DNA of 13,160 nucleotides from a virus (Duplodnaviria; Heunggongvirae; Uroviricota; Caudoviricetes), in IMG/VR virus record IMGVR_UViG_2711768055_000004; one strand, given 5' to 3'. A program made the position numbers and the translations under genes. Shown here one piece after another: positions 1 through 13,160 of this stretch. Numbering within the stretch: position 1 is the stretch's first letter; every line of letters begins with the position of its first letter. Under the pieces are notes generated by a model. That model was not told the DNA's origin. It searched no databases and saw nothing but the letters and a program-made list of their open reading frames with translations.

Positions 1-1236
1 CTACGATAACCGCGCATTCAACATGGCTATCTGTTCGTCGTTCATGTCATCAATCCACATACCGTAAATTTCATACACCATCTGCGCAGTTTCATGCCCC
101 ATTTGGCTGGCTATAAATGCCGGGTTCGCTCCTGCCGTCAACAGCCAGCAGGCAAAAGTATGCCGCGTATGGTACGGATTACGGCGGCGAATACCAGCAC
201 GTTTTACTGCTGCATTCCACCTTGCCCCCAAACTGCTTACCGAGTAATAAGGTTTTTGTTTTCCGTTACACACCCTGGGCATGAAAACAAAATGCAGTTT
301 TTGCTTTTCGGTTCTGCCGTACTCCCGATGATAAAAGGTGATTTCGCTTTTGCGATGATGCCCGGTCAGTTTGTATTGCTCCTTCAGTGCTTCAAGAGCA
401 GGCTGCAGTAGTGTTACTGTTCGGATCCCGGCATTTGTTTTTGGGGGACCGAACATATCAAGTATCGTCAGGTTTCTTCTGACATTCACTATTCCCTTTT
501 CGAGATCCACATCCTCCCACGCCAGAGCTGCCAGTTCCCCGTGACGAAGTCCTGAGTAAACGGCAAATTTCCACAAGTTCTGGCTCTGTCCTTTTTCACT
601 TTCCATTAATGCATTGAATTCTGTTTTAGATAACGGATCAGGCTTTATTCTGTTTCGCTGTAATTTTTTTACTCCTTCAAATGGTTTGGTTGATATAAAT
701 CCCGACTGATACGCAAAACGCAACAGCGAACAGAGCAGGGCGATATAGTTATCAACTGTGCGCACGGTTCTTCCTTTTTTGTTGGATCTTGGATTATCCA
801 GGTAAAGCGTTTCTCCATGCAGCAGTTCATTCCGGTAGTTTAAGATATCGCTATAACGAATATGTGATATCGGGGTACTTTCACAAATTATTATTCTGAG
901 TGTTTTTAATTGTGATTTCGTTTTCTTCATTGTGTTTGTTGTTAACTCTGTCTCTTTAATTTTTGTCCAGATATCACAAAGCTCTCCGAACGTTTTTATG
1001 ACTCTCGTTGTCACCATTTTTGCCCCAGTGCTGGACTGGGGAAAACGTCTTAAATACTCAAATTCACCGGAGTTTATTTCATGAACTATCAGCGCTCTTA
1101 AATTTCCGGCCTTTTTAATATTACTGTTTGTAATCTCCCAGCCTTTTAATGTTTCCCGACATCGTTTTCCTCGAAACATGAACCAGATGCGAATGTATCT
1201 ACCTCTAATCTCGACACCTGTTGGTAATTTAGACAT
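1..1236 (-). CDS. intR: Rac-type prophage integrase (tyrosine recombinase), 411 aa
   Basis: Full-length ORF from the track; stop codon (cta = tag on minus) at 1..3, ATG at 1234..1236. C-terminal tyrosine-recombinase motifs are visible (LRHGELAALAW, HTRHTFACWLL). N-terminus MSKLPTGVEIRGRYIRIWF matches my recollection of K-12 IntR. Confidence 0.93.
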   Translation of the reverse strand: MSKLPTGVEIRGRYIRIWFMFRGKRCRETLKGWEITNSNIKKAGNLRALIVHEINSGEFEYLRRFPQSSTGAKMVTTRVIKTFGELCDIWTKIKETELTTNTMKKTKSQLKTLRIIICESTPISHIRYSDILNYRNELLHGETLYLDNPRSNKKGRTVRTVDNYIALLCSLLRFAYQSGFISTKPFEGVKKLQRNRIKPDPLSKTEFNALMESEKGQSQNLWKFAVYSGLRHGELAALAWEDVDLEKGIVNVRRNLTILDMFGPPKTNAGIRTVTLLQPALEALKEQYKLTGHHRKSEITFYHREYGRTEKQKLHFVFMPRVCNGKQKPYYSVSSLGARWNAAVKRAGIRRRNPYHTRHTFACWLLTAGANPAFIASQMGHETAQMVYEIYGMWIDDMNDEQIAMLNARLS

Positions 1237-1237
1237 A

Positions 1238-1453
1238 TCATGAGTCTTTGATAAACTGATTTATCTTTGGATAGTTGTACCAGATAATCCCTCGTTTGCT
1301 GTCTGGCTTACCTAAAGGAGATACTCGTTTGAAGTGGAAGCCCTCCACCCAACAGTTCTGGCGGTATGCTTCAATTTGTCTGGCCCCCAGACCAGTGCGA
1401 AGCATCAGGCCGTATTCAACCATCCACTCTTCATTAAAGATTACTTGTGCCAT
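1238..1453 (-). CDS. xisR: Excisionase-like protein XisR/YdaQ, 71 aa
   Basis: Track ORF 1238..1477; I place the start at the internal ATG (1451..1453) because GAGGTGA sits 5 nt upstream. Product [35 protein letters not shown]. Its stop lies 1 nt from the intR start, the usual xis-int arrangement. Confidence 0.82.
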
Positions 1454-1531
1454 CGCATCACCTCTGGCAGGCGCCAATGTTAGACTGAAATTGACGCCCG
1501 ATGTTGATTATTAATAATCAGCTATGAAGTT

Positions 1532-1741
1532 TTAATTTGAATACAATGCAATTCTCGAGGACTGAAGTTTCTCGCAATTAAAATTTATCAGTTTTACTTT
1601 CTGCTCTCTGGAAACGCCTGCTTCTTTTTTACCTGAGAGCATTTTTTCGCATTCTGATTTCGTTAGTTTAGATTTTGAATATCTTGTCCAGTTAGTAGGA
1701 GTGCCACCTTCCTTTTCAATAGTGGCGGTAATTTTATACAT
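1532..1741 (-). CDS. ydaC: Rac prophage small protein YdaC, 69 aa
   Basis: Track ORF 1532..1813; start placed at the ATG at 1739..1741 (MYKITATIEKEGG...) preceded by GGAGGTG. This ATG overlaps the last codons of ralR by 8 nt. Confidence 0.75.
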   Translation of the reverse strand: MYKITATIEKEGGTPTNWTRYSKSKLTKSECEKMLSGKKEAGVSREQKVKLINFNCEKLQSSRIALYSN

Positions 1742-1928
1742 GAACACCTCCATTATTATTTCCAGTGGTTCGTTTATTCCATCTTTCGAGTGCTTCTTTT
1801 TCACTTCCACCATAACCGGTTCGGGATTCGCATCCGTTACACTTCGCTCGGTAATATCCTGAAATGGCTTTCACCGTTACTGATGGACAACCACAAAATG
1901 GACATGGTTTAACATTGTCATATCTCAT
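1734..1928 (-). CDS. ralR: RalR, zinc-ribbon restriction-alleviation protein / type I toxin (DNase), 64 aa
   Basis: Track ORF 1734..1967; start placed at ATG 1926..1928 (MRYDNVKPCPFCGCPSV...CNGC...). An alternative ATG at 1940 would add MRKI. Two CxxC pairs indicate a zinc ribbon. Matches recalled K-12 RalR. Confidence 0.82.
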   Translation of the reverse strand: MRYDNVKPCPFCGCPSVTVKAISGYYRAKCNGCESRTGYGGSEKEALERWNKRTTGNNNGGVHV

Positions 1929-1984
1929 AATTTTTCTCATAAAAAATATTTCAAGTTGGCGGTGCATTACACCGCCAGGCTGAA

Positions 1985-2794
1985 TTATTCCTCTGAATTA
2001 TCGATTACACTGTATTCCCCGGTTAATACAGAGGAATCTGCAGGATCGATTGTCAGTGGTTCCTTTTCATCCATTGATACTGCACGCTGGATCTCAATTG
2101 ATACGGGCAAATATTTGAACAGGCGACGAATAGCCGTTTTCTTTGCCATTTCTTCCCAGTGAGTTACCCACGGCCCGTTATTACCAGCTTTACTCAGGCT
2201 GCGCACCAGCTCAATCTGTTTGCGCGTCATAACTTCAAACTGAGTACCTCCGTCTTTCAGTCTTGCGACAGCATAGACGTGGGTAACCGGGGCATCTTCG
2301 TTTTCTCCCGGGCGGTGTATTAACTTTTCATCAAGGCCAAATTCGAAGCTAAACTCGTCACCTTCACGGACAACACGGGCTGACAGGCTGGCGATTTGAC
2401 CAGAACGGCGAGCCAGATCAATCATGCCGCGATAGCCAATGATTAGCTGAACGTTCTTTTTACCGCTCTTTTCGTTTTTATTACCAAAAGGCAGTAAATA
2501 TGCATGACCGAGGGCGCTACCTGGCTCAAGTCCGAGCTGTGAACACTGTACGATCGCACTGACAAAACTCATAGTGTCACAGTTTCCTAACGCCGGAACT
2601 TTACGAATTTCTGTGGTGGCGATACGGATCATACGTTCAGCCGTCATATGGCGTGGAAGAGCTGCTGCCAGTTGCTCTTTCATTGATGGCTGGTTAATAA
2701 AACTAATCACGTCGCTATTTTTAACTGCTGCTGGTGCACGGTTTCCCTGAGTTTTTTGCAGATCGGCTTTTGCGATTGGTGGTTGCTTAGTCAT
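1985..2794 (-). CDS. recT: RecT single-strand annealing recombinase, 269 aa
   Basis: Track ORF 1985..2851; start placed at ATG 2794 ([18 protein letters not shown]...), matching K-12 RecT. The recE stop (2787) overlaps the recT start by 8 nt, the classic recET coupling. Confidence 0.95.
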
Positions 2795-5387
2795 TTGCAT
2801 ATTCCTTAGCCCAGCGGGGCAGTGATAATGTCTTAATAGCTGGCCATTCATCGGTATTCAGGCAGTCAGACAGGGTTCGCAGATTGCGGTGATATTCCTG
2901 TTGACCTGCCAGTTTTGCTTCTTCGCCCATCATGAAAATTTCAACCGGATAACGTCCGCATTCAATAGTTGTGCTGGCAACCAGAAAAACGAAAGTTGGC
3001 TGCACTCCAAACTGTGCTTCATAACCGTCACTGTAGAATGCATCCTGAACGTGATAGCGGTAGTCGTAATAAGCGGTTTTGAATCGTTGAATATCCGCCG
3101 TAGTTTTCACGTCCATGATCCAGTGAAATTCAGGGATAATTTTGTCCGGACGGCACCGACACAAAATTCCTGTTTCAGGATCTTCCCAGTAAATTGATGA
3201 TTCAGCGTGTCCGGCGCTTTCAACAAGCCATTGCCCCAGCGGCAAAGCCATAACGCTTTGATACATGAGTTCAATTTTCCGGCCTTCTTCCGCAGTGATA
3301 ACCGTTTTTCCTGTGCTTGCGCATTCCATCAGAAACGCTTTCTCTTCTTCTTTTCCGGCGTTTGTACGGCGGTTAAATTCAGGTGCTACGATAAAGCGGT
3401 TACTGAATTCTTCCGGTTCAAGTACCCGGCAGTGGAAAGCAGTTCCTAAATCGAGCGTTTTTGTCTTTGTGGTGTCCACGGGGGCATTTTTACGCCACAA
3501 ATATAGTGCCGGAGTATCAGCAATGTCATCGAGCTGAGACTTACTGATACCGGGACCCGCGTGGTAATTCTCATTCGAAATTCCGTAATAAATACCTGGC
3601 TCTATGTCTTCTACGATTACGGGATCTGCGACTTCGCCAGTTTCATCACTGCAATCGCGATGCGGATCGCTGCCAGCATTCTCATTGTGCGGATGTTCAG
3701 CGCCTTCCATTTCCTCCGGATCATTTTCCTTAGCTTCAACCTGACTCTCTTCATCGAATGTTTCCTGGTATGTTGCGTCGCCCATCACCGCACCACAGTC
3801 AGGGCAGTTATCCCCGCCAGTCTGGCCGCAGGCATTGCAGGCTATTTCCGGTTCCTGTTGCACTACTGGCTCAGGTTGATTCATATCTGGGCTGGTTTTT
3901 TCCGTTTCTGGCTGGTTCTGGTACACACAATCGCGAGTCTGGATCCCCTTTACCCATTTCGGATCGTTCGGGTCGCTAATTCCGTCAACAAATTCACCAC
4001 GTGATGCAGCAAGCAATTTATCGTCATCGACAGGATTTTTTGATGGAATGTTTTTCCGGGCTTCATGGAGTTCTGCCCGCAGTTCCTGATATTTCGCATC
4101 AACAGAATTTACCTGTGACTGAGCATCCAGCGGCTGCGTGTCCTGATGATGTTCAGTTGCGTCCGGTTCCATTGTTTCAGCCTCTCCCTGTTCAACTGCC
4201 GTTGTTCCAGATGGTTGCGGTTTTTCTTCATCATCCTGTTTTCCTTCTTCTGTTACTCGCTGCGGCATCGGGGCAGAGGAGCGACCGCAGGCAATATCCA
4301 CGATTTCCGGATCAGGGTTGGCATGATCGGTTTCAGTCAGTACTTTGTTCAGATATTCAGTGACGTGCGCGGGGATGACCTCGATCCCAATTGGTGCTTC
4401 TTTTACGGACGCAACCACGATGGCGCGGGAATAATCCAGCCCGCCAGGCATGGTGATGAATTTGTCGCGGAAAACAGAAAAGGGCGGTTTATTTTCAGCG
4501 ATAATTTCCTCAATGCGTTTAGCGTGTGCCGGATGAAGGTTATAGATGTCCAGATCCATTGAACGGGCCAGTACGCCAGTGGCTACGTCGCGCGCCAGTG
4601 ACGTCAGATCGTGTACGAAACCTTCGCCGCGATCGGTGAGGTTTCCGCCGCCAGCATTAGCACCGGAAGCCGTGCGAGTGATGTGTGAAACACGATTACC
4701 CTTCATCCACTCTTTTGTCAGCAGTCCTCGATCGGTGTAGTCAGCGTTCAGGTATGCTTCGAAAAAAGCAGTTATCAGTCCCAGGTTTGAATTACCAGGA
4801 TTAGGGAAAACTTTGTCAGTGTCACGAACCAGTTTGTGGAGTTCGCGAATTTCCAGCGGGTCGAGCAGGCTGGTTTTGTGGGAAACAGCCAGGGCAGTAA
4901 CAGCCGGTAGTTCTTCAGCCCGAGCAATGTGTAATGCCTGGAGTCCGTCGCGTGAAACGTGCGTTACCGGTTTTTCGCTGCCGTGTTGAGCAAGCCAACG
5001 AATGGGCAGTTCCTGGCCAGAAATTGGGAGTAGCATATTCTCCTCAATCTCAGTCATGTCTTCGCCGTTGACGTTGGTATTGCCTTGATAGTGAGCGTTG
5101 TCTGGTGCTGCTCCCGGTTTTAGTTCCCATGTCATGGAGTCTTTGCTGAGTTGATAGCGTTCACTCCAGGTAAAATCGATCTCACCTTCAGCGGGCAGGT
5201 CATTAACGACAGGAAAATTCGTGGCAACAGCTTTAAAATAGCTGCTCAGTTTTTTACCTGACTTAACGATCAGGTAGTCCAGAGTGGCACAGGTCGATTC
5301 AAAATCGTTGCTTGCCCACAGGACGACGTCAGGTTCACCGGATGATTTTTTCGCTTTCCGTAACAGGAAGAGTGGTTTTGTGCTCAT
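2787..5387 (-). CDS. recE: RecE exonuclease VIII (5'-3' dsDNA exonuclease), 866 aa
   Basis: 866-aa ORF from the track; N-terminus [24 protein letters not shown] and acidic central linker, with the C-terminal nuclease domain, match recalled K-12 RecE. Confidence 0.95.
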
Positions 5388-5458
5388 TGTTTTTTAACCT
5401 CAACTCAGATTAAAATTCGTTTTGTTCAGTGAATGATCTTGCCGGATACACACTGTTC

Positions 5459-5490
5459 ATAGCCTGCGCCATACGCAGGCTATTTCTTTC
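5459..5490 (+). terminator. Perfect 10-bp stem-loop in the racC-recE intergenic region
   Basis: ATAGCCTGCG, loop ccata, CGCAGGCTAT (5459..5483), followed on the plus strand by TTCTTTC. It is terminator-like only in plus-strand sense; on the minus strand it sits 6 nt after the racC stop with no U-tract. Confidence 0.35.
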
Positions 5491-5764
5491 AGATTTCACC
5501 TTTTAATTTCATTGCAATTAGAGTTGCCAGAAATTCGGCTTTTTTTTCTGCGGGCAGATTCTTTCCGATATGCACCAGGCACATTTTTTTGACACCTTCA
5601 TCAAGTGTTTTTACGTTGCCTGATGGACCATCGATATCAACCACAGTGAATGGGGTTTCTTTATTTTCTGTTTTAATTACGTAGCCAATGCGCTTTCCTT
5701 CCAGATTCACCTCGTGAACAATGTCATCGGTAGTTACAACAGTGGCTTCATAATTGGTAATCAT
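5489..5764 (-). CDS. racC: RacC, 91 aa, function unknown
   Basis: Track ORF 5489..5812; start placed at internal ATG 5764 (MITNYEATVVTTDD...) because AAGGAG lies 7 nt upstream; the longer ORF start has no ribosome-binding site. Confidence 0.85.
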   Translation of the reverse strand: MITNYEATVVTTDDIVHEVNLEGKRIGYVIKTENKETPFTVVDIDGPSGNVKTLDEGVKKMCLVHIGKNLPAEKKAEFLATLIAMKLKGEI

Positions 5765-5838
5765 GTTTTTCTCCTTAATTAAGGTTGAGCGAATACCTGC
5801 CATTTCTGGCATAAATTCAGTTTCGAATAGTCAATTAA

Positions 5839-6009
5839 TTAAAGTTCATGTGCCATCTGGTCTTTTTCGGCACAAGCTTCACTGCAATATTTTCTCGGTT
5901 CGTCTTTTGATAAAATCCCGTGCATGAAGTGAAGCATTCTTTCAATAGCTTTGCTTTCTTCAACGTCTTTTTTGCAAAGGTGGTAAGCACATTTTATTTT
6001 CTTAGTCAT
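5839..6009 (-). CDS. ydaE: YdaE, 56-aa zinc-binding protein
   Basis: Not in the ORF track (below size cutoff). Hand translation of the minus strand gives [59 protein letters not shown] (6007..6009) overlaps the kilR stop (6009..6011) as TGATG; stop TAA at 5839..5841. Two Cys pairs suggest zinc binding. Confidence 0.8.
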   Translation of the reverse strand: MTKKIKCAYHLCKKDVEESKAIERMLHFMHGILSKDEPRKYCSEACAEKDQMAHEL

Positions 6010-6230
6010 CACCATGACTCCGCCTTTACAGGTAAACCATCACGACCGAGGAAGACTTTAATCATGCGGTCAGTAATGAATGTTTTTGTGGTCAGGTTAC
6101 GAATATATAGTTTTCGCTTTTTAATATTGTTTGCCGAGGCAATATATGTCCGGCCTTCATGAAGAACATAATCGCCAGGAGTCACACACTGACGTGGTAT
6201 TTCATCAGTTCCGAAGTGATGTGCAATCAT
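6009..6230 (-). CDS. kilR: KilR, FtsZ-targeting cell-division inhibitor, 73 aa
   Basis: Track ORF 6009..6242; start placed at ATG 6228..6230 ([16 protein letters not shown]...) with GGAG 6 nt upstream. Matches recalled K-12 KilR. Confidence 0.85.
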
Positions 6231-6397
6231 AATTATCTCCATTTTTACAAATGAACTTTGTTGATGCGGTGTCTGGTGCCTCCAGGTGACTGCAACCAGT
6301 TAACAATTACAGTCGGCTTTCCCACCCAAACCAATAAGGACTAACATGACTTTTAACTGTGCCACGTGCGCTTAGCCGCATTCACCGCATCACAAAA

Positions 6398-6455
6398 TTC
6401 ACTTTAAAAAGGGCGGACATCAGCCGAACTTCAAGAAAAAAACTGATGCCGCCAG
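6398..6455 (-). terminator. Intrinsic-terminator-like hairpin between sieB and kilR (minus-strand sense)
   Basis: Minus strand reads GGCGGCATCAG, a 19-nt loop, CTGATGTCCGCC, then CTTTTTAAAG: an 11-bp GC-rich stem with one bulge followed by a U-tract. Confidence 0.5.
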
Positions 6456-6671
6456 GACTACACACAGCAATGTCGTTATTTACAACCGGAGGCGCACTCC
6501 CACCATTTAAATTTAACAGACAAGACCGACTCTTTATGGATATCGGAAATGCGCCTTCGTGTTGTGCCCGGTTTTATTTCACCACCTCCGGGCTTCGGTG
6601 GTCTCGGCTATACCCCTACAGCGAGAGCTTGTGTTAACATTTCAATACCCTTACAGTTGAGAGTTATTGAT

Positions 6672-7160
6672 ATGTTGGATGTATTTACTCCATTGTTGAA
6701 ACTTTTTGCTAACGAGCCACTCGAAAGACTTATGTATACGATTATCATTTTTGGTCTCACTCTCTGGCTGATACCGAAAGAGTTTACTGTCGCATTCAAT
6801 GCTTATACTGAAATACCTTGGCTCTTTCAGATTATCGTTTTTGCCTTTTCTTTCGTGGTCGCCATTTCCTTCTCAAGATTGCGAGCACATATTCAAAAGC
6901 ATTATTCATTACTACCAGAGCAACGAGTATTGCTTCGTTTATCTGAGAAAGAAATCGCTGTATTTAAAGATTTCCTTAAAACAGGAAATCTTATTATCAC
7001 TTCTCCTTGCCGTAACCCGGTTATGAAAAAATTAGAACGGAAGGGCATCATTCAACATCAGAGTGATAGCGCAAACTGTTCTTATTATCTCGTCACCGAA
7101 AAATACTCCCATTTTATGAAGTTATTCTGGAACAGCAGGAGTAGACGTTTTAATCGTTAG
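6672..7160 (+). CDS. sieB: SieB superinfection-exclusion membrane protein, 162 aa
   Basis: Track ORF 6549..7160; start placed at ATG 6672 (MLDVFTPLLKLFANEPLERLMYTIIIFGLTLWLIPK...) with GAGAG upstream; the hydrophobic N-terminal half fits a membrane protein. Confidence 0.85.
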   Translation: MLDVFTPLLKLFANEPLERLMYTIIIFGLTLWLIPKEFTVAFNAYTEIPWLFQIIVFAFSFVVAISFSRLRAHIQKHYSLLPEQRVLLRLSEKEIAVFKDFLKTGNLIITSPCRNPVMKKLERKGIIQHQSDSANCSYYLVTEKYSHFMKLFWNSRSRRFNR

Positions 7161-7312
7161 CTTACTGTGTGCTTCTCCAACCATCGGCGCGCACCAGTTT
7201 CGGTTTTAAATGTTTTGCTTTTGGTATACGTCATGGCAGTGAACGTTCCATCCTGGTTGGGGAACACGCCGCACACCAGGGATTCGTTGTTGCCGAGGTC
7301 GATTTTTTGCAT
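7157..7312 (-). CDS. ydaF: YdaF, 51-aa small protein
   Basis: Not in the ORF track. Hand translation gives MQKIDLGNNESLVCGVFPNQDGTFTAMTYTKSKTFKTETGARRWLEKHTVS. Its stop (7157..7159) overlaps the convergent sieB stop (7158..7160). The ribosome-binding site is weak. Confidence 0.65.
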   Translation of the reverse strand: MQKIDLGNNESLVCGVFPNQDGTFTAMTYTKSKTFKTETGARRWLEKHTVS

Positions 7313-7322
7313 TTTGCGAATC

Positions 7323-7457
7323 TCACATCTTGTTGCTACGTATAGCGACTTCTGCCTGCCAGAGATCCCAGTCGTTGCTGCGTAAAGCCTGCACAGCCTG
7401 GTTGTAAGTGATACCGCAACAATCCATCAAATACTGAACTACTTCGTAATGCACCAT
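7323..7457 (-). CDS. ydaG: YdaG, 44-aa small protein
   Basis: Not in the ORF track. Hand translation, checked codon by codon, gives MVHYEVVQYLMDCCGITYNQAVQALRSNDWDLWQAEVAIRSNKM. A strong AAGGGGAGAG ribosome-binding site precedes the ATG at 7455..7457. Confidence 0.7.
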   Translation of the reverse strand: MVHYEVVQYLMDCCGITYNQAVQALRSNDWDLWQAEVAIRSNKM

Positions 7458-7619
7458 CTTATCTCTCCCCTTAACGCCGGGTGGCGGAACTAACTGCTGC
7501 ACTGCAAAATTTGAATCCCGCCGTCATGTTCATACGCCTCGGGCTGGCTACTTAACCCCTTACCACTGCCTGGTAACTCGAAGTATTGCCCGGCGTTCTG
7601 TGGGGCGGGGTGGGTGGTA

Positions 7620-7700
7620 TGCTGGAACTATAGGTAATGCCTAATTGATTGTCAATAGGCTATGCCTAATGTTTTGAGCGTAACCTAATAGGTGATGGCG
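7620..7700 (-). promoter_or_regulatory. OL-like operator/promoter upstream of ydaG (leftward)
   Basis: Read on the minus strand: ATTAGGCA (7670..7663), TTGACA (7655..7650), ATTAGGCA (7645..7638), TATAGT (7632..7627), with a 17-nt spacer. This closely mirrors the OR-like module. Confidence 0.5.
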
Positions 7701-7725
7701 ACAGCAGAAAGTGATGGGGGGGTTA

Positions 7726-7751
7726 AATAACGGAATCCAGGAGTTTTCCGT
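7726..7751 (-). terminator. Weak hairpin plus U-rich tail just downstream of the racR stop
   Basis: ACGGAA, 10-nt loop, TTCCGT (7730..7751), followed on the minus strand by UAUUUAA and then a C-run. The stem is short and the call is tentative. Confidence 0.25.
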
Positions 7752-7765
7752 CAGACCATATAAGT

Positions 7766-8242
7766 TTAAGTTCCAGTTTTTGTGATGTTCTGGCTTTTCC
7801 GTTCAGATTCAAGAGCTTTCAGATACTTACCCACTTTCATTTCCATCGCTGCTATGTAGGCGCGAACATCGTGGTCAACCCAATCTGGTTCTGTAGCATT
7901 TCCAGATAACAGGAAAGCTACAATCGCTCTTATTTCATCAGAGGCTGCTTGATAAAGGTTGTTTATATCTAAAAGTTCACTTTTTGTATCTGAATTGGTG
8001 GGGGTTGGTATGGGGTATTCGTTAAGCCCCCAATGCTCTGGACCAACAACATCAGAAAAGAAACGCCATAATTCTGGAAGTTTATCTTTACTTATAGAGC
8101 CTTTCTTAATCCAGTCATAAATTGATGGTGGTTGGACTTTAAAGTGGCGTGCGACCTCCGCCTTTGATTTGACGGATCCCGATGCGATTTTTTTGTTAAT
8201 GGCCTGCTCTATCGCTCGGCCTAAGTCTTTACCACTAAGCAT
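7766..8242 (-). CDS. racR: RacR, prophage repressor (HTH), 158 aa
   Basis: Track ORF; AGGAG 11 nt upstream of the ATG; helix-turn-helix-like segment KAEVARHFKVQPPSIYDWIKKG. Divergent from ydaS across an operator-rich intergenic region. Confidence 0.9.
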   Translation of the reverse strand: MLSGKDLGRAIEQAINKKIASGSVKSKAEVARHFKVQPPSIYDWIKKGSISKDKLPELWRFFSDVVGPEHWGLNEYPIPTPTNSDTKSELLDINNLYQAASDEIRAIVAFLLSGNATEPDWVDHDVRAYIAAMEMKVGKYLKALESERKSQNITKTGT

Positions 8243-8261
8243 TGCTTAATATTCTCCTATG

Positions 8262-8345
8262 CGCATTACATTAGGCAATCCCTACCCTTACTGCATTAGG
8301 CACAGCCTATTGACAATTGCGTTAGGCGTCGCCTAATATTTCTGT
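8262..8345 (+). promoter_or_regulatory. OR-like operator/promoter region between racR and ydaS
   Basis: ATTAGGCA at 8270..8277 and 8295..8302; -35 TTGACA at 8310..8315; 15-bp palindrome TTAGGCG-t-CGCCTAA at 8322..8336 overlapping a -10 TAATAT at 8334..8339; GGAG then ydaS ATG at 8366. Confidence 0.6.
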
Positions 8346-8365
8346 GTGTTTTTGGAGTTCATTCG

Positions 8366-8662
8366 ATGAAAAAAGAGAACTATTCATTCAAGCAAGCTTG
8401 TGCTGTTGTCGGTGGGCAATCAGCAATGGCTAGGCTTTTAGGTGTATCACCTCCAAGCGTAAATCAATGGATCAAAGGGGTACGTCAATTGCCTGCCGAG
8501 AGATGTCCAGCAATTGAACGTGCAACAAGAGGTGAGGTTCTGTGCGAAGAACTTCGTCCTGATATTGACTGGTCATATTTACGACGTTCGGCATGTTGTT
8601 CGCAGAATATGTCAGTGAAGCAACTAAATGACAGTAACAAATCCTCATTTGATCATACCTGA
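8366..8662 (+). CDS. ydaS: YdaS, Cro-like HTH protein, 98 aa
   Basis: Track ORF; GGAG upstream of ATG 8366; HTH-like segment QSAMARLLGVSPPSVNQWIKG. It is the first gene of the rightward operon opposite racR. Confidence 0.9.
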   Translation: MKKENYSFKQACAVVGGQSAMARLLGVSPPSVNQWIKGVRQLPAERCPAIERATRGEVLCEELRPDIDWSYLRRSACCSQNMSVKQLNDSNKSSFDHT

Positions 8663-8684
8663 AACATCAAGAGGCAAATGATTC

Positions 8685-9107
8685 ATGAAAATCAAGCATG
8701 AGCACATCGAATCAGTGTTGTTTGCCCTAGCAGCCGAAAAAGGGCAGGCATGGGTAGCCAATGCAATTACTGAAGAATATCTGCGCCAGGGGGGCGGCGA
8801 ATTGCCCCTGGTTCCAGGCAAGGACTGGAACAATCAGCAGAATATCTATCACCGTTGGTTGAAAGGTGAAACGAAAACGCAAAGAGAAAAAATTCAGAAG
8901 CTGATCCCAGCAATTCTGGCAATCCTTCCGCGCGAGCTGCGTCACCGACTCTGCATCTTCGATACCCTGGAACGCCGTGCATTACTGGCGGCGCAGGAAG
9001 CGTTAAGTACGGCAATTGATGCGCATGATGATGCAGTCCAAGCCGTTTACCGGAAAGCGCATTTCAGCGGCGGCGGTTCTTCCGACGATTCTGTCATTGT
9101 TCATTAA
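8685..9107 (+). CDS. ydaT: YdaT, 140 aa (reported toxic, cII-position protein)
   Basis: Track ORF immediately downstream of ydaS; MKIKHEHIESVLFALAAEKGQAW... matches recalled K-12 YdaT. Confidence 0.88.
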   Translation: MKIKHEHIESVLFALAAEKGQAWVANAITEEYLRQGGGELPLVPGKDWNNQQNIYHRWLKGETKTQREKIQKLIPAILAILPRELRHRLCIFDTLERRALLAAQEALSTAIDAHDDAVQAVYRKAHFSGGGSSDDSVIVH

Positions 9108-9119
9108 GCAAAAGTTTCC

Positions 9120-9977
9120 ATGCTGTTTGTGCTTATTCTAAGCCACCGGGCAGCATCATACGGGGCAATTATGGCCGCATTACCATACATGCAACTGTAC
9201 ATAGCTGATTACCTGGCTGACACCATGCATTTGTCAGCAGAGGAGCATGGTGCGTATTTGTTGCTGATGTTCAATTACTGGCAAACAGGAAAGCCAATAC
9301 CTAAAAACAGGCTGGCAAAAATTGCCCGTCTGACTAACGAGCGATGGGCTGATGTTGAACCATCCTTGCAGGAGTTTTTTTGCGATAACGGCGAGGAATG
9401 GGTGCATCTTCGGATTGAGGAAGATCTGGCATCAGTCAGGGAAAAATTAACCAAAAAATCAGCCGCAGGAAAAGCATCTGTTCAGGCCAGAAGAAGCAGA
9501 AAGGAAGCAGATGTTCAAACAAAACAAGAGAGAAATTTAACAGGTGTTCAAACAGATGTTGAAGTGGTGTTTGAACATGATGTCAACACAAAGGCAACTA
9601 ATAAAGATACAGATAAAGATCTAAAAACAGATCCCCCCCTAAATCCCCCCCGGGGGAATCGAGGTGTCAAAAAGTTTGACCCTCTGGATATTACTTTGCC
9701 GAACTGGATTTCTGTCTCGCTTTGGCGTGAGTGGGTTGAATTTCGCCAGGCATTGCGAAAACCGATTCGAACGGAGCAGGGCGCTAACGGGGCGATACGG
9801 GAGCTGGAAAAATTCCGCCAGCAGGGTTTTTCACCTGAGCAGGTGATTCGACACAGCATCGCCAATGAATACCAGGGCTTGTTCGCGCCGAAAGGTGTTC
9901 GACCTGAGACGTTACTCCGACAGGTTAACACCGTCTCGTTACCGGATAGTGCGATCCCGCCAGGCTTCAGGGGGTAA
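9120..9977 (+). CDS. ydaU: YdaU, DUF1376-family protein in the replication-gene (O-like) position, 285 aa
   Basis: Track ORF; the ATG at 9120 lacks a clear ribosome-binding site and an alternative ATG at about 9171 (MAALPYMQLYIADYL...) follows a GGGG motif, so the true start is uncertain. A Pro-rich linker separates two halves. Confidence 0.8.
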   Translation: MLFVLILSHRAASYGAIMAALPYMQLYIADYLADTMHLSAEEHGAYLLLMFNYWQTGKPIPKNRLAKIARLTNERWADVEPSLQEFFCDNGEEWVHLRIEEDLASVREKLTKKSAAGKASVQARRSRKEADVQTKQERNLTGVQTDVEVVFEHDVNTKATNKDTDKDLKTDPPLNPPRGNRGVKKFDPLDITLPNWISVSLWREWVEFRQALRKPIRTEQGANGAIRELEKFRQQGFSPEQVIRHSIANEYQGLFAPKGVRPETLLRQVNTVSLPDSAIPPGFRG

Positions 9978-9983
9978 CTGACC

Positions 9984-10730
9984 ATGAAAAATATTGCGAC
10001 AGGCGATGTTCTTGAACGTATCCGCAGACTGGCCCCGTCACATGTAACCGCGCCATTCAAGACGGTAGCGGAGTGGCGCGAGTGGCAACTTTCCGAAGGC
10101 CAGAAACGTTGTGAGGAGATCAACCGTCAGAATCGTCAGTTGCGGGTGGAAAAAATTCTGAATCGCTCTGGCATCCAGCCATTGCACCGCAAATGCTCGT
10201 TTTCGAATTACCAGGTGCAGAACGAAGGGCAGCGATACGCGTTGAGTCAGGCGAAATCCATCGCTGATGAACTGATGACCGGGTGTACAAATTTTGCGTT
10301 CAGCGGAAAACCTGGTACCGGGAAGAACCACTTAGCGGCAGCTATCGGGAATCGCCTGCTGAAAGACGGTCAGACAGTGATTGTGGTTACCGTGGCTGAT
10401 GTTATGAGTGCCCTGCACGCCAGCTATGACGATGGGCAGTCAGGCGAAAAATTTTTGCGGGAACTGTGCGAAGTGGATCTGCTGGTTCTTGATGAAATTG
10501 GCATTCAGCGCGAGACGAAAAACGAGCAGGTGGTACTGCACCAGATTGTTGATCGCCGGACAGCGTCGATGCGCAGCGTGGGGATGCTGACAAACCTGAA
10601 CTATGAGGCCATGAAAACATTGCTCGGCGAGCGGATTATGGATCGCATGACCATGAACGGCGGGCGATGGGTGAATTTTAACTGGGAGAGCTGGCGTCCG
10701 AATGTCGTCCAGCCAGGAATTGCGAAGTAA
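9984..10730 (+). CDS. ydaV: YdaV, DnaC/IstB-like AAA+ helicase-loader ATPase, 248 aa
   Basis: Track ORF; Walker [17 protein letters not shown] and Walker B LLVLDEIG are present. Confidence 0.9.
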
Positions 10731-10752
10731 TTTTTACCGGGAGAAAAATTTA

Positions 10753-11313
10753 ATGGAGACTGTTTTTGACGCACTGAAAGCAATGGGAAAAGCCACATCC
10801 ATAGAACTTGCTGCGCGACTTGATATCAGTCGTGAAGAAGTGCTGAACGAACTATGGGAACTGAAAAAGGCTGGTTTTGTTGATAAAAGCGCGTACACCT
10901 GGCGTGTGGCTGATAACAATGTTCAGCAGGAACAGCCAGCGCAGGCAGAACTGCCGGAAGAAATCACCACAGCAACAGTAGCGAAAATCTCAGAGTGCGA
11001 TTTAACCGCGACGATTGAACAACGAGGACCACAAACGGCTGATGAGCTGGCTACATTGTTTGGTACCACATCACGCAAAGTGGCTTCAACGCTGGCAATG
11101 GCAATCAGCAAAGGTCGTCTGATTCGCGTAAATCAGGGCGGTAAATTTCGTTACTGCATACCGGGCGATAATTTACCAGCAGAGCCGAAAGCAGCATCGG
11201 TATCTCCGCTCTGGTTATCTGCATCGTCGTCTGCCTGTCATGGGGTGTTAATCATTACCGTGATAACGCCATCGCCTACAAAGAACAGCGCGACAAAAAT
11301 GCCAGAGAACTGA
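10753..11313 (+). CDS. ydaW: YdaW, putative winged-helix protein; C-terminus runs into the Rz remnant (probably disrupted)
   Basis: Track ORF 10702..11313 overlaps ydaV by 29 nt and has no ribosome-binding site; the ATG at 10753 ([13 protein letters not shown]...) follows GGGAGA. The last ~45 codons read out of frame over spanin-homologous DNA. Confidence 0.65.
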
Positions 11314-11339
11314 AGCTGGCGAACGCGGCAATTACTGAG

Positions 11340-11642
11340 ATGCAGATGCGTCAGCGTGATGTTGCTGCGCTCGATGCAAAATACACGAAGGAGTTAGCTG
11401 ATGCGAAAGCTGAAAATGATGCTCTGCGTGATGATGTTGCCGCTGGTCGTCGTCGGTTGCACATCAAAGCAGTCTGTCAGTCAGTGCGTGAAGCCACCAC
11501 GGCCTCCGGCGTGGATAATGCAGCCTCCCCCCGACTGGCAGACACCGCTGAACGGGATTATTTCACCCTCAGAGAGAGGCTGATCACTATGCAAAAACAA
11601 CTGGAAGGAACCCAGAAGTATATTAATGAGCAGTGCAGATAG
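11340..11642 (+). pseudogene. rzpR: Rz (i-spanin) remnant, N-terminally truncated
   Basis: The ORF encodes the C-terminal ~100 aa of lambda-type Rz (…[45 protein letters not shown]…YINEQCR). Rz homology continues upstream in the same frame to about 11175 ([21 protein letters not shown]) but with no start codon and fused to ydaW. Confidence 0.8.
11401..11583 (+). CDS. rzoR: Rz1-type o-spanin lipoprotein, 60 aa, embedded in the +1 frame of Rz
   Basis: Track ORF; lipobox LVVVGC and Pro-rich mature region ([18 protein letters not shown]), fully nested within the Rz frame as in lambda. Confidence 0.8.
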
Positions 11643-11673
11643 AGCTGACCATATCGATGGGCAACTCATGCAA

Positions 11674-11967
11674 TTATTTTGAGCAATACACACGCGCTTC
11701 CAGCGGAGTATAAATGCCTAAAGTAATAAAACCGAGCAATCCATTTACGAATGTTTGCTGGGTTTCTGTTTTAACAACATTTTCTGCGCCGCCACAAATT
11801 TTAGCTGCATCGACAGTTTTCTTCTGCCCAATTCCAGAAACGAAGAAATGATGGGTGATGGTTTCCTTTGGTGCTACTGCTGTCTGTTTGTTTTGAACAG
11901 TAAATGTCTGTTGAGCACATCCTGTAATAAGCAGGGCCAGCGCAGTAGCGAGTAGCATTTTTTTCAT
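11674..11967 (-). CDS. bor: Bor-family outer-membrane lipoprotein (serum resistance), 97 aa
   Basis: Track ORF; MKKMLLATALALLITGCAQQTFTVQNK... with lipobox LITGC, near-identical to my recollection of lambda Bor. Confidence 0.9.
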   Translation of the reverse strand: MKKMLLATALALLITGCAQQTFTVQNKQTAVAPKETITHHFFVSGIGQKKTVDAAKICGGAENVVKTETQQTFVNGLLGFITLGIYTPLEARVYCSK

Positions 11968-12257
11968 GGTGTTATTCCCGATGCTTTTTGAAGTTCGCAG
12001 AATCGTATGTGTAGAAAATTAAACAAACCCTAAACAATGAGTTGAAATTTCATATTGTTAATATTTATTAATGTATGCCAGGTGCGATGAATCGTCATTG
12101 TATTCCCGGATTAACTATGTCCACAGCCCTGACGGGGAACTTCTCTGCGGGAGTGTCCGGGAATAATTAAAAACGATGCACACAGGGTTTAGCGCGTACA
12201 TGTATTGTATTATGCCAACACCCCGGTGCTGACACGGAAGAAACCGGACGTTATGAT

Positions 12258-12668
12258 TTAGCGTGGAAAGATTTGTGTAGTGTTCTGAATGCTCTCAGTA
12301 AATAGTAATGAATTATCAAAGGTATAGTAATATCTTTTATGTTCGTGGATATTTGTAATCCATCGGAAAACTCCTGCTTTAGCAAGATTTTCCCTGTATT
12401 GCTGAAATGTGATTTCTCTTGATTTCAACCTATCATAGGACGTTTCTATAAGATGCGTATTTCTTGAGAATTTAACATTTACAACCTTTTTAAGTCCTTT
12501 TATTAACACGGTGTTATCGTTTTCTAACACAATGTGAATATTATCTGTGGCTAGATAGTAAATATAATGTGAGACATTGTGACGTTTTAGTTCAGAATAA
12601 AACAATTCACAGTTTAAATCTTTTCGCACTTGATCGAATATTTCTTTAAAAATGGCAACCTGAGCCAT
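12258..12668 (-). CDS. ybcV: YbcV/YdfO-family (DUF1398) prophage protein, ~136 aa
   Basis: Track ORF 12258..12791 begins at a TTG; I place the start at the ATG at about 12668 ([18 protein letters not shown]...) with GGAAGG upstream. An alternative ATG at about 12710 would give 150 aa. Resembles DLP12 YbcV. Confidence 0.75.
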
Positions 12669-12953
12669 TGGTAAAACCTTCCATGTGATACGAGGGCGCG
12701 TAGTTTGCATTATCGTTTTTATCGCTTCAATCTGGTCTGACCTCTTTGTGTTTTGTTGATGATTTATGTCAAATATTAGGAATGTTTTCAATTAATAGTA
12801 TTGGTTGCGTAACAAAGTGCGGTCCTGCTGGCATTCTGGAGGGAAATACAACCGACAGATGTATGTAAGGCCAACGTGCTCAAACCTTCATACAGAAAGA
12901 TTTGAAGTAATATTTTAACCGCTAGATGAAGAGCAAGCGCATGGAGCGACAAA

Positions 12954-13160
12954 ATGAATAAAGAACAATCTGCTGATGATCCCTCCGTGGATCTGATTCG
13001 TGTAAAAAATATGCTTAATAGCACCATTTCTATGAGTTACCCTGATGTTGTAATTGCATGTATAGAACATAAGGTGTCTCTGGAAGCATTCAGGGCAATT
13101 GAGGCAGCGTTGGTGAAGCACGATAATAATATGAAGGATTATTCCCTGGTGGTTGACTGA
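12954..13160 (+). CDS. ybcW: YbcW-like small prophage protein, 68 aa
   Basis: Track ORF, complete (stop TGA at window end); [40 protein letters not shown]... resembles DLP12 YbcW; divergent from ybcV as in DLP12. Confidence 0.8.

Follow-up and report, generated by a model that had tools for sequence, protein, structure and literature searches.

The divergent racR and ydaS-ydaT genes raise the question of whether they form an addiction cassette that enforces prophage retention, as a first-pass annotation of this DNA had proposed, or the immunity switch of a lambdoid phage. We analyzed them in a 13,160-nucleotide stretch of viral DNA (the window), where each gene corresponds exactly to an open reading frame at the position given in that annotation:

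7766-8242, minus strand: racR, 158 aa
8366-8662, plus strand: ydaS, 98 aa
8685-9107, plus strand: ydaT, 140 aa

The window is 100% identical to E. coli K-12 over positions 7600-9200, where the K-12 annotation reads racR, ydaS, and ydaT. With the family profile matches described below, this confirms the gene identities and coordinates. A 123-bp spacer (8243-8365) separates racR from the divergent ydaS, which matches the P22_Cro and HTH_3 families, in agreement with the annotated layout of an HTH repressor facing a Cro-like protein. The module is thus the immunity region of the K-12 Rac prophage, which is already well studied and whose function is already known. Further along, profile matches (including PHROGs) identify ydaU as O-like/primosomal and ydaV as DnaC-like, and an Rfam search of the window returned RalA as its sole match. 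The window as a whole differs from plain K-12 Rac, as it carries K-12 DLP12 sequence from about position 11500 onward; this Rac/DLP12 junction has no effect on the racR-ydaS-ydaT module.

A 13-bp palindrome, TAGGC-N3-GCCTA, occurs five times in the 13.2-kb window with at most one mismatch, against 0.15 copies expected, and none of 200 shuffled windows reached five copies. All five adjoin racR, three of them within the racR-ydaS spacer and the other two at 7631 and 7656. The spacer corresponds to the right operator region (OR), on which a RacR footprint has been demonstrated experimentally (PMC9638921), and it is arranged as follows:

8236-8248: degenerate operator TAAGCATTGCTTA, the published operator O3, whose 3-nt spacer contains the racR start codon (PMC9638921)
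8272-8284: OR palindrome TAGGCAATCCCTA, from the palindrome search, in the spacer footprinted by RacR (PMC9638921)
8297-8309: OR palindrome TAGGCACAGCCTA, abutting the PR -35 (palindrome search; PMC9638921)
8310-8339, plus strand: PR analogue (PydaST), TTGACA, 18-nt spacer, TAATAT, matching 10 of 12 consensus positions
8323-8335: OR palindrome TAGGCGTCGCCTA, filling the PR spacer into the -10 (palindrome search; PMC9638921)

Three strong operators and one degenerate operator overlap the divergent promoters. PydaST is strong and yields a bicistronic ydaS-ydaT transcript (PMC11879457). In Klebsiella phage KpF5, the sequence TAGGCAATGCTTA spans the racR ATG in the same arrangement as the K-12 O3.

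The two remaining palindromes lie beyond the repressor gene, where they coincide with a predicted leftward early promoter and form, at the sequence level, a second operator set (OL):

7627-7655, minus strand: predicted PL-like promoter, TTGACA at 7655-7650, 17-nt spacer, TATAGT at 7632-7627
7631-7643: predicted OL palindrome TAGGTAATGCCTA, filling the PL spacer and entering the -10, same motif as in the footprinted OR
7656-7668: predicted OL palindrome TAGGCTATGCCTA, abutting the PL -35 (palindrome search)

The interval 7766-9107 given in the first-pass annotation thus enclosed the genes correctly but missed this left block at 7627-7668. The PL-like promoter matches 11 of 12 sigma-70 consensus positions and faces ydaG, ydaF, kilR, recET, xisR, and intR. 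The OL and OR blocks are mirror images of each other, with a 35-nt inverted repeat at 7648-7682 and 8283-8317. Identity with the footprinted OR motif (PMC9638921) suggests that RacR would also bind the OL sites and directly control PL, whose activity is predicted from its sequence.

This organization is conserved. In K-12, in O157 (RacR 92%), and in KpF5 (RacR 56%), one palindrome abuts the -35 while the next one fills the spacer into the -10, and the O157 and KpF5 classes have the same PL hexamers and spacing as K-12. In KpF5, the OL pair is retained despite an inserted gene that shifts it by about 1.4 kb. Three OR and two OL sites are found in 84 of the 87 RacR-bearing loci compared, most of which are at least 99% identical, so that about three independent lineages stand behind the support for OL. 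Likewise, the matches in the scan of viral contigs with RacR were mostly at least 99% identical, and the scan of genome contigs with YdaS gave 11 loci.

A RacR-controlled PL would fit the published effect of RacR depletion, in which the leftward genes rise 40- to more than 100-fold (PMC6765115; bioRxiv 2026.09.06.749655); this derepression could in principle also be indirect, for example via YdaS or YdaT. The widely conserved PL leader (7503-7621) gave no significant signal in a folding test for nut-like structure (z-score -1.2). We found no description of a Rac OL/PL in the searchable literature of recent open-access papers. Our own additions to the knowledge of this region are small and consist of OL/PL with its conservation, the limits of the immunity cassette, the uncoupling of ydaT from racR, and the domain architecture of RacR.

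A profile score of 244.6 bits for the NCBIfam RacR equivalog NF049929 (cutoff 200) identifies RacR as a member of that family. A Pfam search gave no match above threshold (HTH_17 reached 18.7 bits, cutoff 27), PHROGs has no family for it, and a PDB search found no solved relative. In the structure model, five N-terminal helices (residues 1-73), a putative HTH domain of the XRE/cI type, are followed by a linker and a three-helix C-terminal domain. The top Foldseek matches of the model are all HTH domains of XRE, cI, HipB, or C-proteins, with a best E-value of 0.2 that is not significant. The N-terminal half of the model thus weakly resembles XRE/lambda cI HTH domains, while judged by its sequence RacR is not a member of the lambda cI family. 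RacR has no match to PF00717, the S24 peptidase family, and its modeled C-terminal half consists of three helices. Since RacR lacks the S24 domain, classical induction by RecA-mediated cleavage cannot apply. In four relatives (P0103, P0105, P0114, and P0117), residues 1-73 of RacR are nearly invariant and are fused to an S24 peptidase.

RacR has been reported to be octameric and structurally similar to the CI N-terminal domain (PMC11014345). We regard it as an even call whether RacR controls PL through OL, with an octamer bridging the roughly 640 bp between OL and OR in a repression loop of the lambda kind. If this is true, the immunity unit is the interval 7620-8678, both arms stand under one cooperative switch, and such an OL-OR switch would explain why excision is coupled to RacR loss.

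Comparison with heteroimmune Rac-like prophages delimits this interval:

7620-8678: exchangeable immunity cassette (PL/OL, racR, OR/PR, ydaS), from mosaic breakpoints, limits approximate

Against prophage L097, homology of 99.6% stops at 7619 and restarts at 8679; it restarts at 8679 in L096 and at 8681 in L098. These three prophages have an intact ydaT and the same flanks, between which lie unrelated HTH_3 repressor/Cro pairs; each repressor has different repeats of its own to either side. The repressor, operators, and cro are therefore swapped as one cassette, as expected for a heteroimmunity region, and ydaT lies outside it. Indeed, the K-12-type ydaT is found behind unrelated repressors in many genomes with the same prophage backbone. 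Among 5426 genomes, racR is present in 1086, always at full length, and ydaS in 1089, a near-perfect pairing, whereas ydaT occurs in 1506 and in heteroimmune contexts, so that racR and ydaT are not inherited as a fixed pair. The K-12-type left arm (at least 80% coverage) is also commoner than the racR cassette, with 1366 genomes.

The two genes of the rightward transcript resemble phage regulators. YdaS matches Pfam YdaS_toxin (2.6e-31), P22_Cro (3.4e-9), and HTH_3, as well as PHROG 35 (1.3e-27), and its PDB matches are Cro proteins (3bd1, 3.9e-10; 8co2 and 8c7k, about 3e-4). By homology, YdaS is a Cro-like HTH regulator belonging to the Cro family. Its overexpression leads to Rac excision (PMC11014345) and, unlike lambda Cro, it does not repress racR in reporter assays (PMC9638921). 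YdaT matches Pfam PF06254 (1.8e-11), the structures 3c4r (3e-7) and 8bt1, the YdaT of prophage CP-933P (2.2e-6), and PHROG 163, 'CII-like transcriptional activator' (2.2e-37). In KpF5, a CII protein of the Pfam family Phage_CP76 occupies the ydaT slot. The sites described for YdaT action are present in the window:

8456-8488, minus strand: PracR4, reverse promoter inside ydaS, -35 TTGACG at 8488-8483, -10 TACGCT at 8461-8456
8678-8695: YdaT box ATGATTCATGAAAATCAA, with the ydaT start codon within it, exact sequence match

The PracR4 hexamers are 21 nt apart in the window sequence. The YdaT box has been footprinted and is needed for the 29-fold activation of PracR4, the PRE analogue activated by YdaT (PMC11879457). 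Homology, box, and promoter hexamers thus place YdaT among CII-type activators, with activation itself known from that study. YdaT acts as a CII-like activator of transcription and, once derepressed, is the main source of toxicity. Its toxicity runs via the host gene rcsA (PMC11014345, PMC11879457), and it leaves Rac excision unaffected (PMC11014345).

The database names 'toxin YdaS' and 'toxin YdaT family' call for caution, since together with an essential racR they make the module look like a toxin-antitoxin or addiction system; the genetic context and published experiments point instead to an ordinary lambdoid switch stranded in a defective prophage. A type II toxin-antitoxin pairing of YdaS with YdaT was suggested by their Pfam names (YdaS_toxin, YdaT_toxin) and an early RASTA prediction, and the genes are indeed small, adjacent, and co-transcribed, with toxicity on expression reported for both. 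We give this reading practically no weight. Single deletions of ydaS or ydaT are viable and co-expression leaves the toxicity without neutralization (PMC5700373, PMC5700377, PMC11014345), both proteins are DNA-binding regulators assigned to Cro and CII-like families (PMC8630535, PMC9986795, PMC11879457), and the CP-933P YdaT is nontoxic (PMC8630535). Moreover, the mosaic breakpoint parts ydaS from ydaT, and the two genes are exchanged independently, as in locus L002, where YdaS is 85% identical and YdaT only 31%. On published genetics, we reject a toxin-antitoxin relation between YdaS and YdaT.

The first-pass annotation had stated that racR is essential in K-12 because derepressed ydaS and ydaT are toxic, and the literature bears this out. 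The racR gene is absent from the Keio collection, its deletion failed even in a kilR deletion strain, and it was obtained only when ydaS-ydaT were deleted too (PMC5700373). CRISPRi of racR is toxic, and deletion of ydaS and ydaT relieves this toxicity (PMC5700377). Groups disagree on the toxic protein, YdaS being lethal in one study (PMC5700373) and not lethal in another (PMC11014345), in which ydaT expression was toxic in a Rac-deleted host.

The same experiments bear on the possibility that RacR-loss lethality comes from the leftward arm, through the FtsZ inhibitor KilR, the RalR DNase, or RecET, with ydaS and ydaT as mere upstream regulators. The predicted OL/PL would put kilR, ralR, and recET under RacR, whose depletion raises their expression 40- to 70-fold or more. 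However, ydaT is toxic in a host devoid of Rac, deletion of ydaS-ydaT alone permits deletion of racR while deletion of kilR does not, and filamentation persists after deletion of kilR or ralR/ralA (PMC6765115). We therefore attach hardly any credence to a leftward origin of the lethality, and the leftward arm as the main cause of death is already refuted by the published genetics.

The proposal that racR, ydaS, and ydaT act as an addiction cassette, keeping Rac in the chromosome by post-segregational killing, draws on several observations. As noted, the essential racR gene tolerates deletion only if ydaS-ydaT are removed as well, and racR and ydaS co-occur (1086 against 1089 genomes) with every racR match at full length. 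Two natural deletions obey the same rule: in CH4799, racR, ydaS, and the 5' part of ydaT are gone, and in PSS-07, racR is kept while ydaS through ydaV are lost. Six loci have a broken ydaS or ydaT with an intact racR and the reverse is not seen, an anecdotal count biased by loci that were mostly selected with RacR. [quoted passage not shown] The genome counts fit a tight linkage between racR and ydaS. The conditional essentiality of racR is ordinary for the repressor of a defective lysogen (Jobling, PMC5917428), and retention of racR is enforced only while PR-ydaS-ydaT is intact in cis.

Retention of the prophage is another matter. Cells without the entire Rac prophage are viable (PMC5700373), all nine sequenced suppressors of RacR deficit carried an identical 23,060-bp Rac excision (PMC11014345), and 3 h are enough for most clones to lose Rac once racR is silenced (bioRxiv 2026.09.06.749655). 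As the survivors of RacR deficit have lost Rac, the module selects for prophage loss once repression fails, and excision is the escape route. The lysogen contains no pre-made toxin pool, with YdaS undetectable and ydaS transcriptionally silent (PMC5700373), and RacR acts by transcriptional repression at the promoter (PMC5700373, PMC5700377) rather than by neutralizing a toxin. Furthermore, ydaT is found with other immunity cassettes, ydaT and the left arm are both commoner than the racR cassette, the two supposed toxins are Cro- and CII-like regulators, and PADLOC models match none of the three proteins. The addiction reading, which the first-pass annotation had favored, is already largely refuted, and we consider it very unlikely.

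Taken together, the module is very probably a lambdoid lysis/lysogeny immunity switch left running in a defective lysogen. RacR is the CI analogue, with a putative XRE/cI-type HTH and a helical oligomerization domain, and it binds TAGGC-N3-GCCTA. At OR (8236-8335), it blocks PR and keeps ydaS, ydaT, and the replication genes ydaU and ydaV silent while autoregulating racR; at OL (7631-7668), where binding is predicted, it would silence ydaG, ydaF, kilR, racC, recET, ralR, xisR, and intR. YdaS opposes the lysogenic state, and YdaT on its box activates the reverse promoter inside ydaS and thereby raises racR expression, like CII at PRE. When RacR drops, the leftward and rightward arms both fire, YdaT misregulating rcsA and the Rcs regulon, with filamentation and death as the outcome, while xis and int excise the prophage at the same time. 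Survivors are thus cured of Rac, and racR is conditionally essential, required only as long as PR-ydaS-ydaT remains intact in cis. The experimental basis of this scheme comes from others, and covers essentiality and its suppression, OR binding, PR strength, the YdaT box and PracR4, toxicity, escape by excision, and leftward derepression.

The immunity region of lambda shares much of this design, with divergent repressor and Cro-like genes around a multi-operator region, a second operator set past the repressor gene over the leftward early promoter (predicted in Rac), and a CII-type activator after cro that drives a reverse repressor promoter. Both phages have O/P-type replication genes on the right side and the kil, recombination, xis, and int functions on the left, and in both the immunity cassette is exchanged as a unit among related phages. 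The octameric state reported for RacR is a further point of similarity. In contrast to the lambda repressor, RacR lacks the S24 autopeptidase and has no significant match to cI beyond the generic XRE HTH. The Rac operators are 13-bp palindromes 25-26 bp apart, with two sites in OL, and the OL-OR distance is only about 640 bp. YdaT belongs to a different fold family (POU-like; PMC9986795) from lambda CII, and Rac is defective, so that its induction leads to excision or death without lysis (PMC11014345).

The PaaR2/YdaS/YdaT region of CP-933P in E. coli O157:H7 has the same architecture and the same YdaS and YdaT families. Its YdaT box is almost identical to that of Rac, and the two YdaT proteins cross-activate (PMC11879457). 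In CP-933P, the repressor is octameric and the PL/OL analogue has been demonstrated experimentally, and its authors describe YdaS and YdaT as Cro and CII analogues and not as a toxin-antitoxin pair (PMC8630535). It differs from Rac in its repressor, PaaR2, in its 18-bp GTTTAGTAA-type operators, and in its nontoxic YdaT, only about 30% identical to that of Rac; its repressor operon also carries a genuine paaA2-parE2 toxin-antitoxin pair, which Rac lacks. With type II addiction modules, Rac shares one gene that cannot be lost while its harmful partners remain. Rac has no constitutive toxin pool, labile antitoxin, or neutralization at the protein level, cells that lose the entire element are unharmed and even rescued by the loss, and ydaT is not co-inherited with racR. 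The Qin and e14 repressors, like RacR, are essential only through derepressible harmful prophage genes (Jobling, PMC5917428), although the proteins and their target genes are different.

As racR is among the few essential transcription factors of K-12, and RacR titration by foreign C proteins or CRISPRi results in filamentation, death, or Rac loss, the switch is relevant to strain engineering and recET-based recombineering backgrounds. With the predicted OL/PL block and the cassette limits, the joint derepression of kilR, recET, xis, and int reported in the literature can be given a direct mechanism that is open to testing. One might further suppose that the host has domesticated the switch as a circuit for stress or defense, in which YdaT remodels the envelope (Rcs regulon, LPS, P1vir resistance) with host input from OxyR. 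This is compatible with an immunity switch, as an addition and not a replacement, and we hold it to be rather doubtful: the switch is not known to be induced under any natural condition, its genes are located in the less conserved part of Rac (PMC5700373), and the PADLOC models, as noted, gave no match. In its favor, YdaT activates the host gene rcsA and YdaT-expressing cells resist P1vir (PMC11014345), OxyR represses ydaT (PMC11879457), and about 20% of the genomes retain an intact module.

The three open reading frames of the immunity module were found exactly where the first-pass annotation had placed them, with racR and ydaS divergently oriented and 123 bp apart.

7766-8242, minus strand: racR, 158 aa
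8366-8662, plus strand: ydaS, 98 aa
8685-9107, plus strand: ydaT, 140 aa

Window positions 7600-9200 are 100% identical to E. coli K-12, where the genes are annotated racR, ydaS and ydaT, and positions 1-11570 differ from K-12 Rac by a single mismatch. RacR scores 244.6 bits on the NCBIfam RacR equivalog (cutoff 200), YdaS matches the Pfam families YdaS_toxin, P22_Cro and HTH_3, and YdaT matches PF06254. The module is real, and it is already known from extensive characterisation. To this the present analysis makes incremental additions: a putative left operator/promoter block (OL/PL), the boundaries of the immunity cassette, the uncoupling of ydaT from racR, and RacR relatives fused to an S24 peptidase domain.

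The module had been proposed to act as an addiction cassette that enforces prophage retention. The essentiality on which this proposal drew is well documented, as racR deletion requires removal of ydaS-ydaT (PMC5700373) and the toxic effect of silencing racR is relieved when ydaS and ydaT are deleted (PMC5700377). Retention itself is contradicted by published data: deletion of the whole Rac prophage is viable (PMC5700373), 9/9 suppressors of a RacR deficit carried an excision of the 23,060-bp prophage (PMC11014345), and upon racR silencing Rac is lost from most clones within 3 h, followed by recovery (bioRxiv 2026.09.06.749655). YdaS is undetectable in the lysogen (PMC5700373), and therefore no toxin outlasts the element. 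An addiction cassette is also at odds with the action of RacR at promoters rather than on proteins, and with the free exchange of ydaT among immunity types, seen from breakpoints against heteroimmune loci. The module thus represents conditional essentiality of the repressor in a defective lysogen, as argued by Jobling (PMC5917428).

The module instead constrains how the cassette can decay: racR cannot be lost ahead of ydaS and ydaT. Two natural deletions are consistent with this rule. E. coli CH4799 carries a single recE-to-ydaT deletion, ending at about ydaT codon 85, that removes racC, kilR, sieB, racR, ydaS and the 5' part of ydaT. In E. coli PSS-07, a deletion reaching from the 3' part of ydaS to ydaV has fused ydaS codon 22 to ydaV, and racR is retained. 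Six loci, from a set selected by RacR and hence biased, have ydaS or ydaT broken and racR intact. Of canonical toxin-antitoxin pairs, the window contains just one, RalR/RalA (type I). Its antitoxin, the sRNA RalA, is encoded at 1557-1735 on the plus strand, opposite ralR (1734-1967, minus strand), and scores 225 bits with Rfam RF02694.

The palindrome TAGGC-N3-GCCTA, allowing at most one mismatch, occurs five times in the 13.2 kb, with 0.15 copies expected by chance; a count of five was not attained in any of 200 shuffles.

7631-7643 and 7656-7668: palindromes of the putative OL, about 100 bp past the racR stop codon
7655-7627, minus strand: predicted PL, TTGACA-17-TATAGT, 11/12 consensus match, overlapped by the OL palindromes
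8236-8248: degenerate fourth OR operator, TAAGCATTGCTTA, with the racR start codon in its spacer
8272, 8297 and 8323 (starts): OR palindromes in the racR-ydaS spacer
8310-8339: PR promoter, TTGACA-18-TAATAT, overlapped by OR operators
8456-8488, minus strand: PracR4, a reverse promoter inside ydaS, with published -35 TTGACG and -10 TACGCT

The OR palindromes, including the degenerate one, are the RacR operators footprinted by Wisniewska et al. 2022 (PMC9638921), and PR is a very strong promoter giving a bicistronic ydaS-ydaT mRNA (PMC11879457). The OL pair falls outside the interval 7766-9107 first assigned to the module. The left block mirrors the right one (a 35-nt inverted repeat), and both have the same geometry, with one palindrome abutting the -35 hexamer and the next filling the spacer and reaching into the -10. 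The predicted PL points away from racR, towards ydaG, ydaF, kilR, racC, recET, ralR, xisR and intR. Three upstream and two downstream palindromes are present in 84/87 fetched loci encoding a RacR homologue; most of these loci are near-identical, so that the independent evidence amounts to three lineages, namely the K-12 type, the O157:H7 class (RacR 92% identical to the K-12 type) and Klebsiella phage KpF5 (56%). In all three, the two OL palindromes are retained at a 25-bp spacing together with the promoter hexamers, and the N3 spacers and flanks differ. In KpF5, an extra DUF450 gene (positions 4649-5803 of locus L004) lies between the repressor and the OL pair, which remains intact 1.4 kb away. 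As this gene occupies the slot of lambda rexAB, it may be a moron or defence gene expressed in the lysogen.

RacR depletion raises ydaG, ydaF, kilR, ydaE, racC, recET, ralR, xisR and intR by 40- to >100-fold in two independent transcriptomes (PMC6765115; bioRxiv 2026.09.06.749655). The RacR binding studies consulted here covered the racR-ydaS spacer only (PMC9638921, PMC5700373), and the RacR regulon, ydaFG included, is described as lacking detailed characterisation so far (PMC11014345). An OL/PL block would be expected in Rac, since the sister prophage CP-933P has been shown to possess a PL/OL analogue and an octameric repressor (PMC8630535), and RacR is likewise reported to be octameric (PMC11014345).

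In the switch, RacR keeps PR off and would silence PL as well, and YdaS acts as a Cro-like antagonist; its overexpression triggers Rac excision (PMC11014345). Reporter assays indicate that racR is not repressed by YdaS (PMC9638921), and the toxicity of YdaS is in dispute (PMC5700373, PMC5700377 versus PMC11014345). YdaT binds ATGATTCATGAAAATCAA at the ydaT start codon and PracR4 is activated 29-fold (PMC11879457); YdaT thereby increases racR expression from PracR4, much as lambda CII acts at PRE. The published PracR4 hexamers are 21 nt apart in the window, well outside sigma-70 spacing, which fits either a promoter that depends on its activator and is otherwise silent, or true hexamers that differ from those published. 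Upon a drop in RacR, YdaT also turns on host rcsA and the Rcs regulon, leading to filamentation and death, as reported (PMC11014345, PMC11879457), and expression of xis and int results in prophage excision.

The Rac-like backbone recurs in other E. coli genomes: kilR, sieB and ydaF lie to the left, and a K-12-type ydaT, intact at 140 aa, lies to the right together with ydaU/V. Between such flanks, heteroimmune loci carry unrelated repressors (HTH_3, 135-139 aa) and Cro-type genes (75-84 aa), each locus with its own repeats on both sides of its repressor gene. Homology between the window and one of these loci (L097) runs at 99.6%, stops at 7619 and restarts at 8679. Together with the swapped repressor/Cro pairs, these breaks point to an exchangeable immunity unit of about 7620-8678, comprising PL/OL, racR, OR/PR and ydaS; ydaT and the YdaT box (8678-8695) are part of the conserved flank. 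The converse is seen in O157:H7, where RacR (92%) and YdaS (85%) are conserved but YdaT is just 31% identical and the replication genes are different. Among 5426 complete genomes, racR is found in 1086, every copy full length, ydaS in 1089, K-12-type ydaT in 1506, the full K-12 trio in 554, and the K-12-type left arm at ≥80% coverage in 1366. These counts agree with an exchangeable cassette. The 60 bp directly downstream of the predicted PL start (7562-7621) are 95-99% conserved in 3197 of these genomes, about three times the number of racR carriers, so that this leader is common to heteroimmune lambdoid prophages; RNA folding prediction gave nothing unusual for it (z = -1.2).

At the protein level, YdaS matches solved Cro proteins by sequence (3bd1, 3.9e-10; 8co2 and 8c7k, ~3e-4). 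YdaT matches 3c4r and 8bt1, the latter being the YdaT of CP-933P, which has been described as functionally equivalent to CII (PMC9986795), as well as PHROG 163, "CII-like transcriptional activator" (2.2e-37); in KpF5, the gene following the YdaS homologue encodes a CII protein of the Pfam family Phage_CP76. No solved relative of RacR was found. In its AlphaFold model (38 homologues, pLDDT 83), an N-terminal domain of five helices is connected by a disordered linker (81-87) to a C-terminal domain of three. For the N-terminal half, Foldseek returned nothing beyond weak matches to XRE, lambda cI-NTD, HipB and C-protein HTH domains (best E 0.2); the C-terminal half gave no match. RacR residues 1-73 are near-invariant at the N-terminus of genuine S24-peptidase proteins of 227-256 aa from Pectobacterium and other Enterobacterales (P0103, P0105, P0114 and P0117). 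RacR therefore appears to combine a classical phage-repressor DNA-binding domain with a non-cleavable oligomerisation domain, which argues against its RecA-mediated induction. The S24-fused relatives reflect domain shuffling between cleavable and non-cleavable repressors and, having the same DNA-binding domain, presumably share the operator specificity of RacR.

No RacR homologue was found near distant YdaS homologues (41-62% identity) from Proteus, Haematospirillum, Gallibacterium and sphingomonads. Escherichia phage record vB_EcoS-683R6 (ON470595) is 99% identical to Rac across the immunity and early regions, with RacR, YdaS, YdaT, YdaU/V, kilR, recET and ralR; its depositors labelled ydaS "repressor protein cI" and ydaT "activator protein cII". 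This record suggests that Rac-type immunity is present on inducible, packaged phages. A 5.2-kb contig binned to a Candidatus Nanosynbacter (Saccharibacteria) MAG, carrying Rac racR, ydaS (with an in-frame stop) and ydaT at 99-100%, almost certainly results from contamination during binning.

At its right end (11400-13160), the window is no longer Rac; the sequence there matches the DLP12 prophage of K-12 at 100% identity, with rzpD, bor (11674-11967), ybcV (12258-12791) and ybcW (from 12954). The Rac-DLP12 junction lies at about 11400-11570, inside homologous Rz genes, and the sole mismatch to K-12 Rac, at 11501, carries the DLP12 allele. A contiguous junction of this kind occurs in 0/5426 complete E. 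coli genomes; its geometry is consistent either with the novel joint formed when the interval from DLP12 to Rac (~0.84 Mb) is duplicated in tandem or with a chimeric assembly at the repeat.
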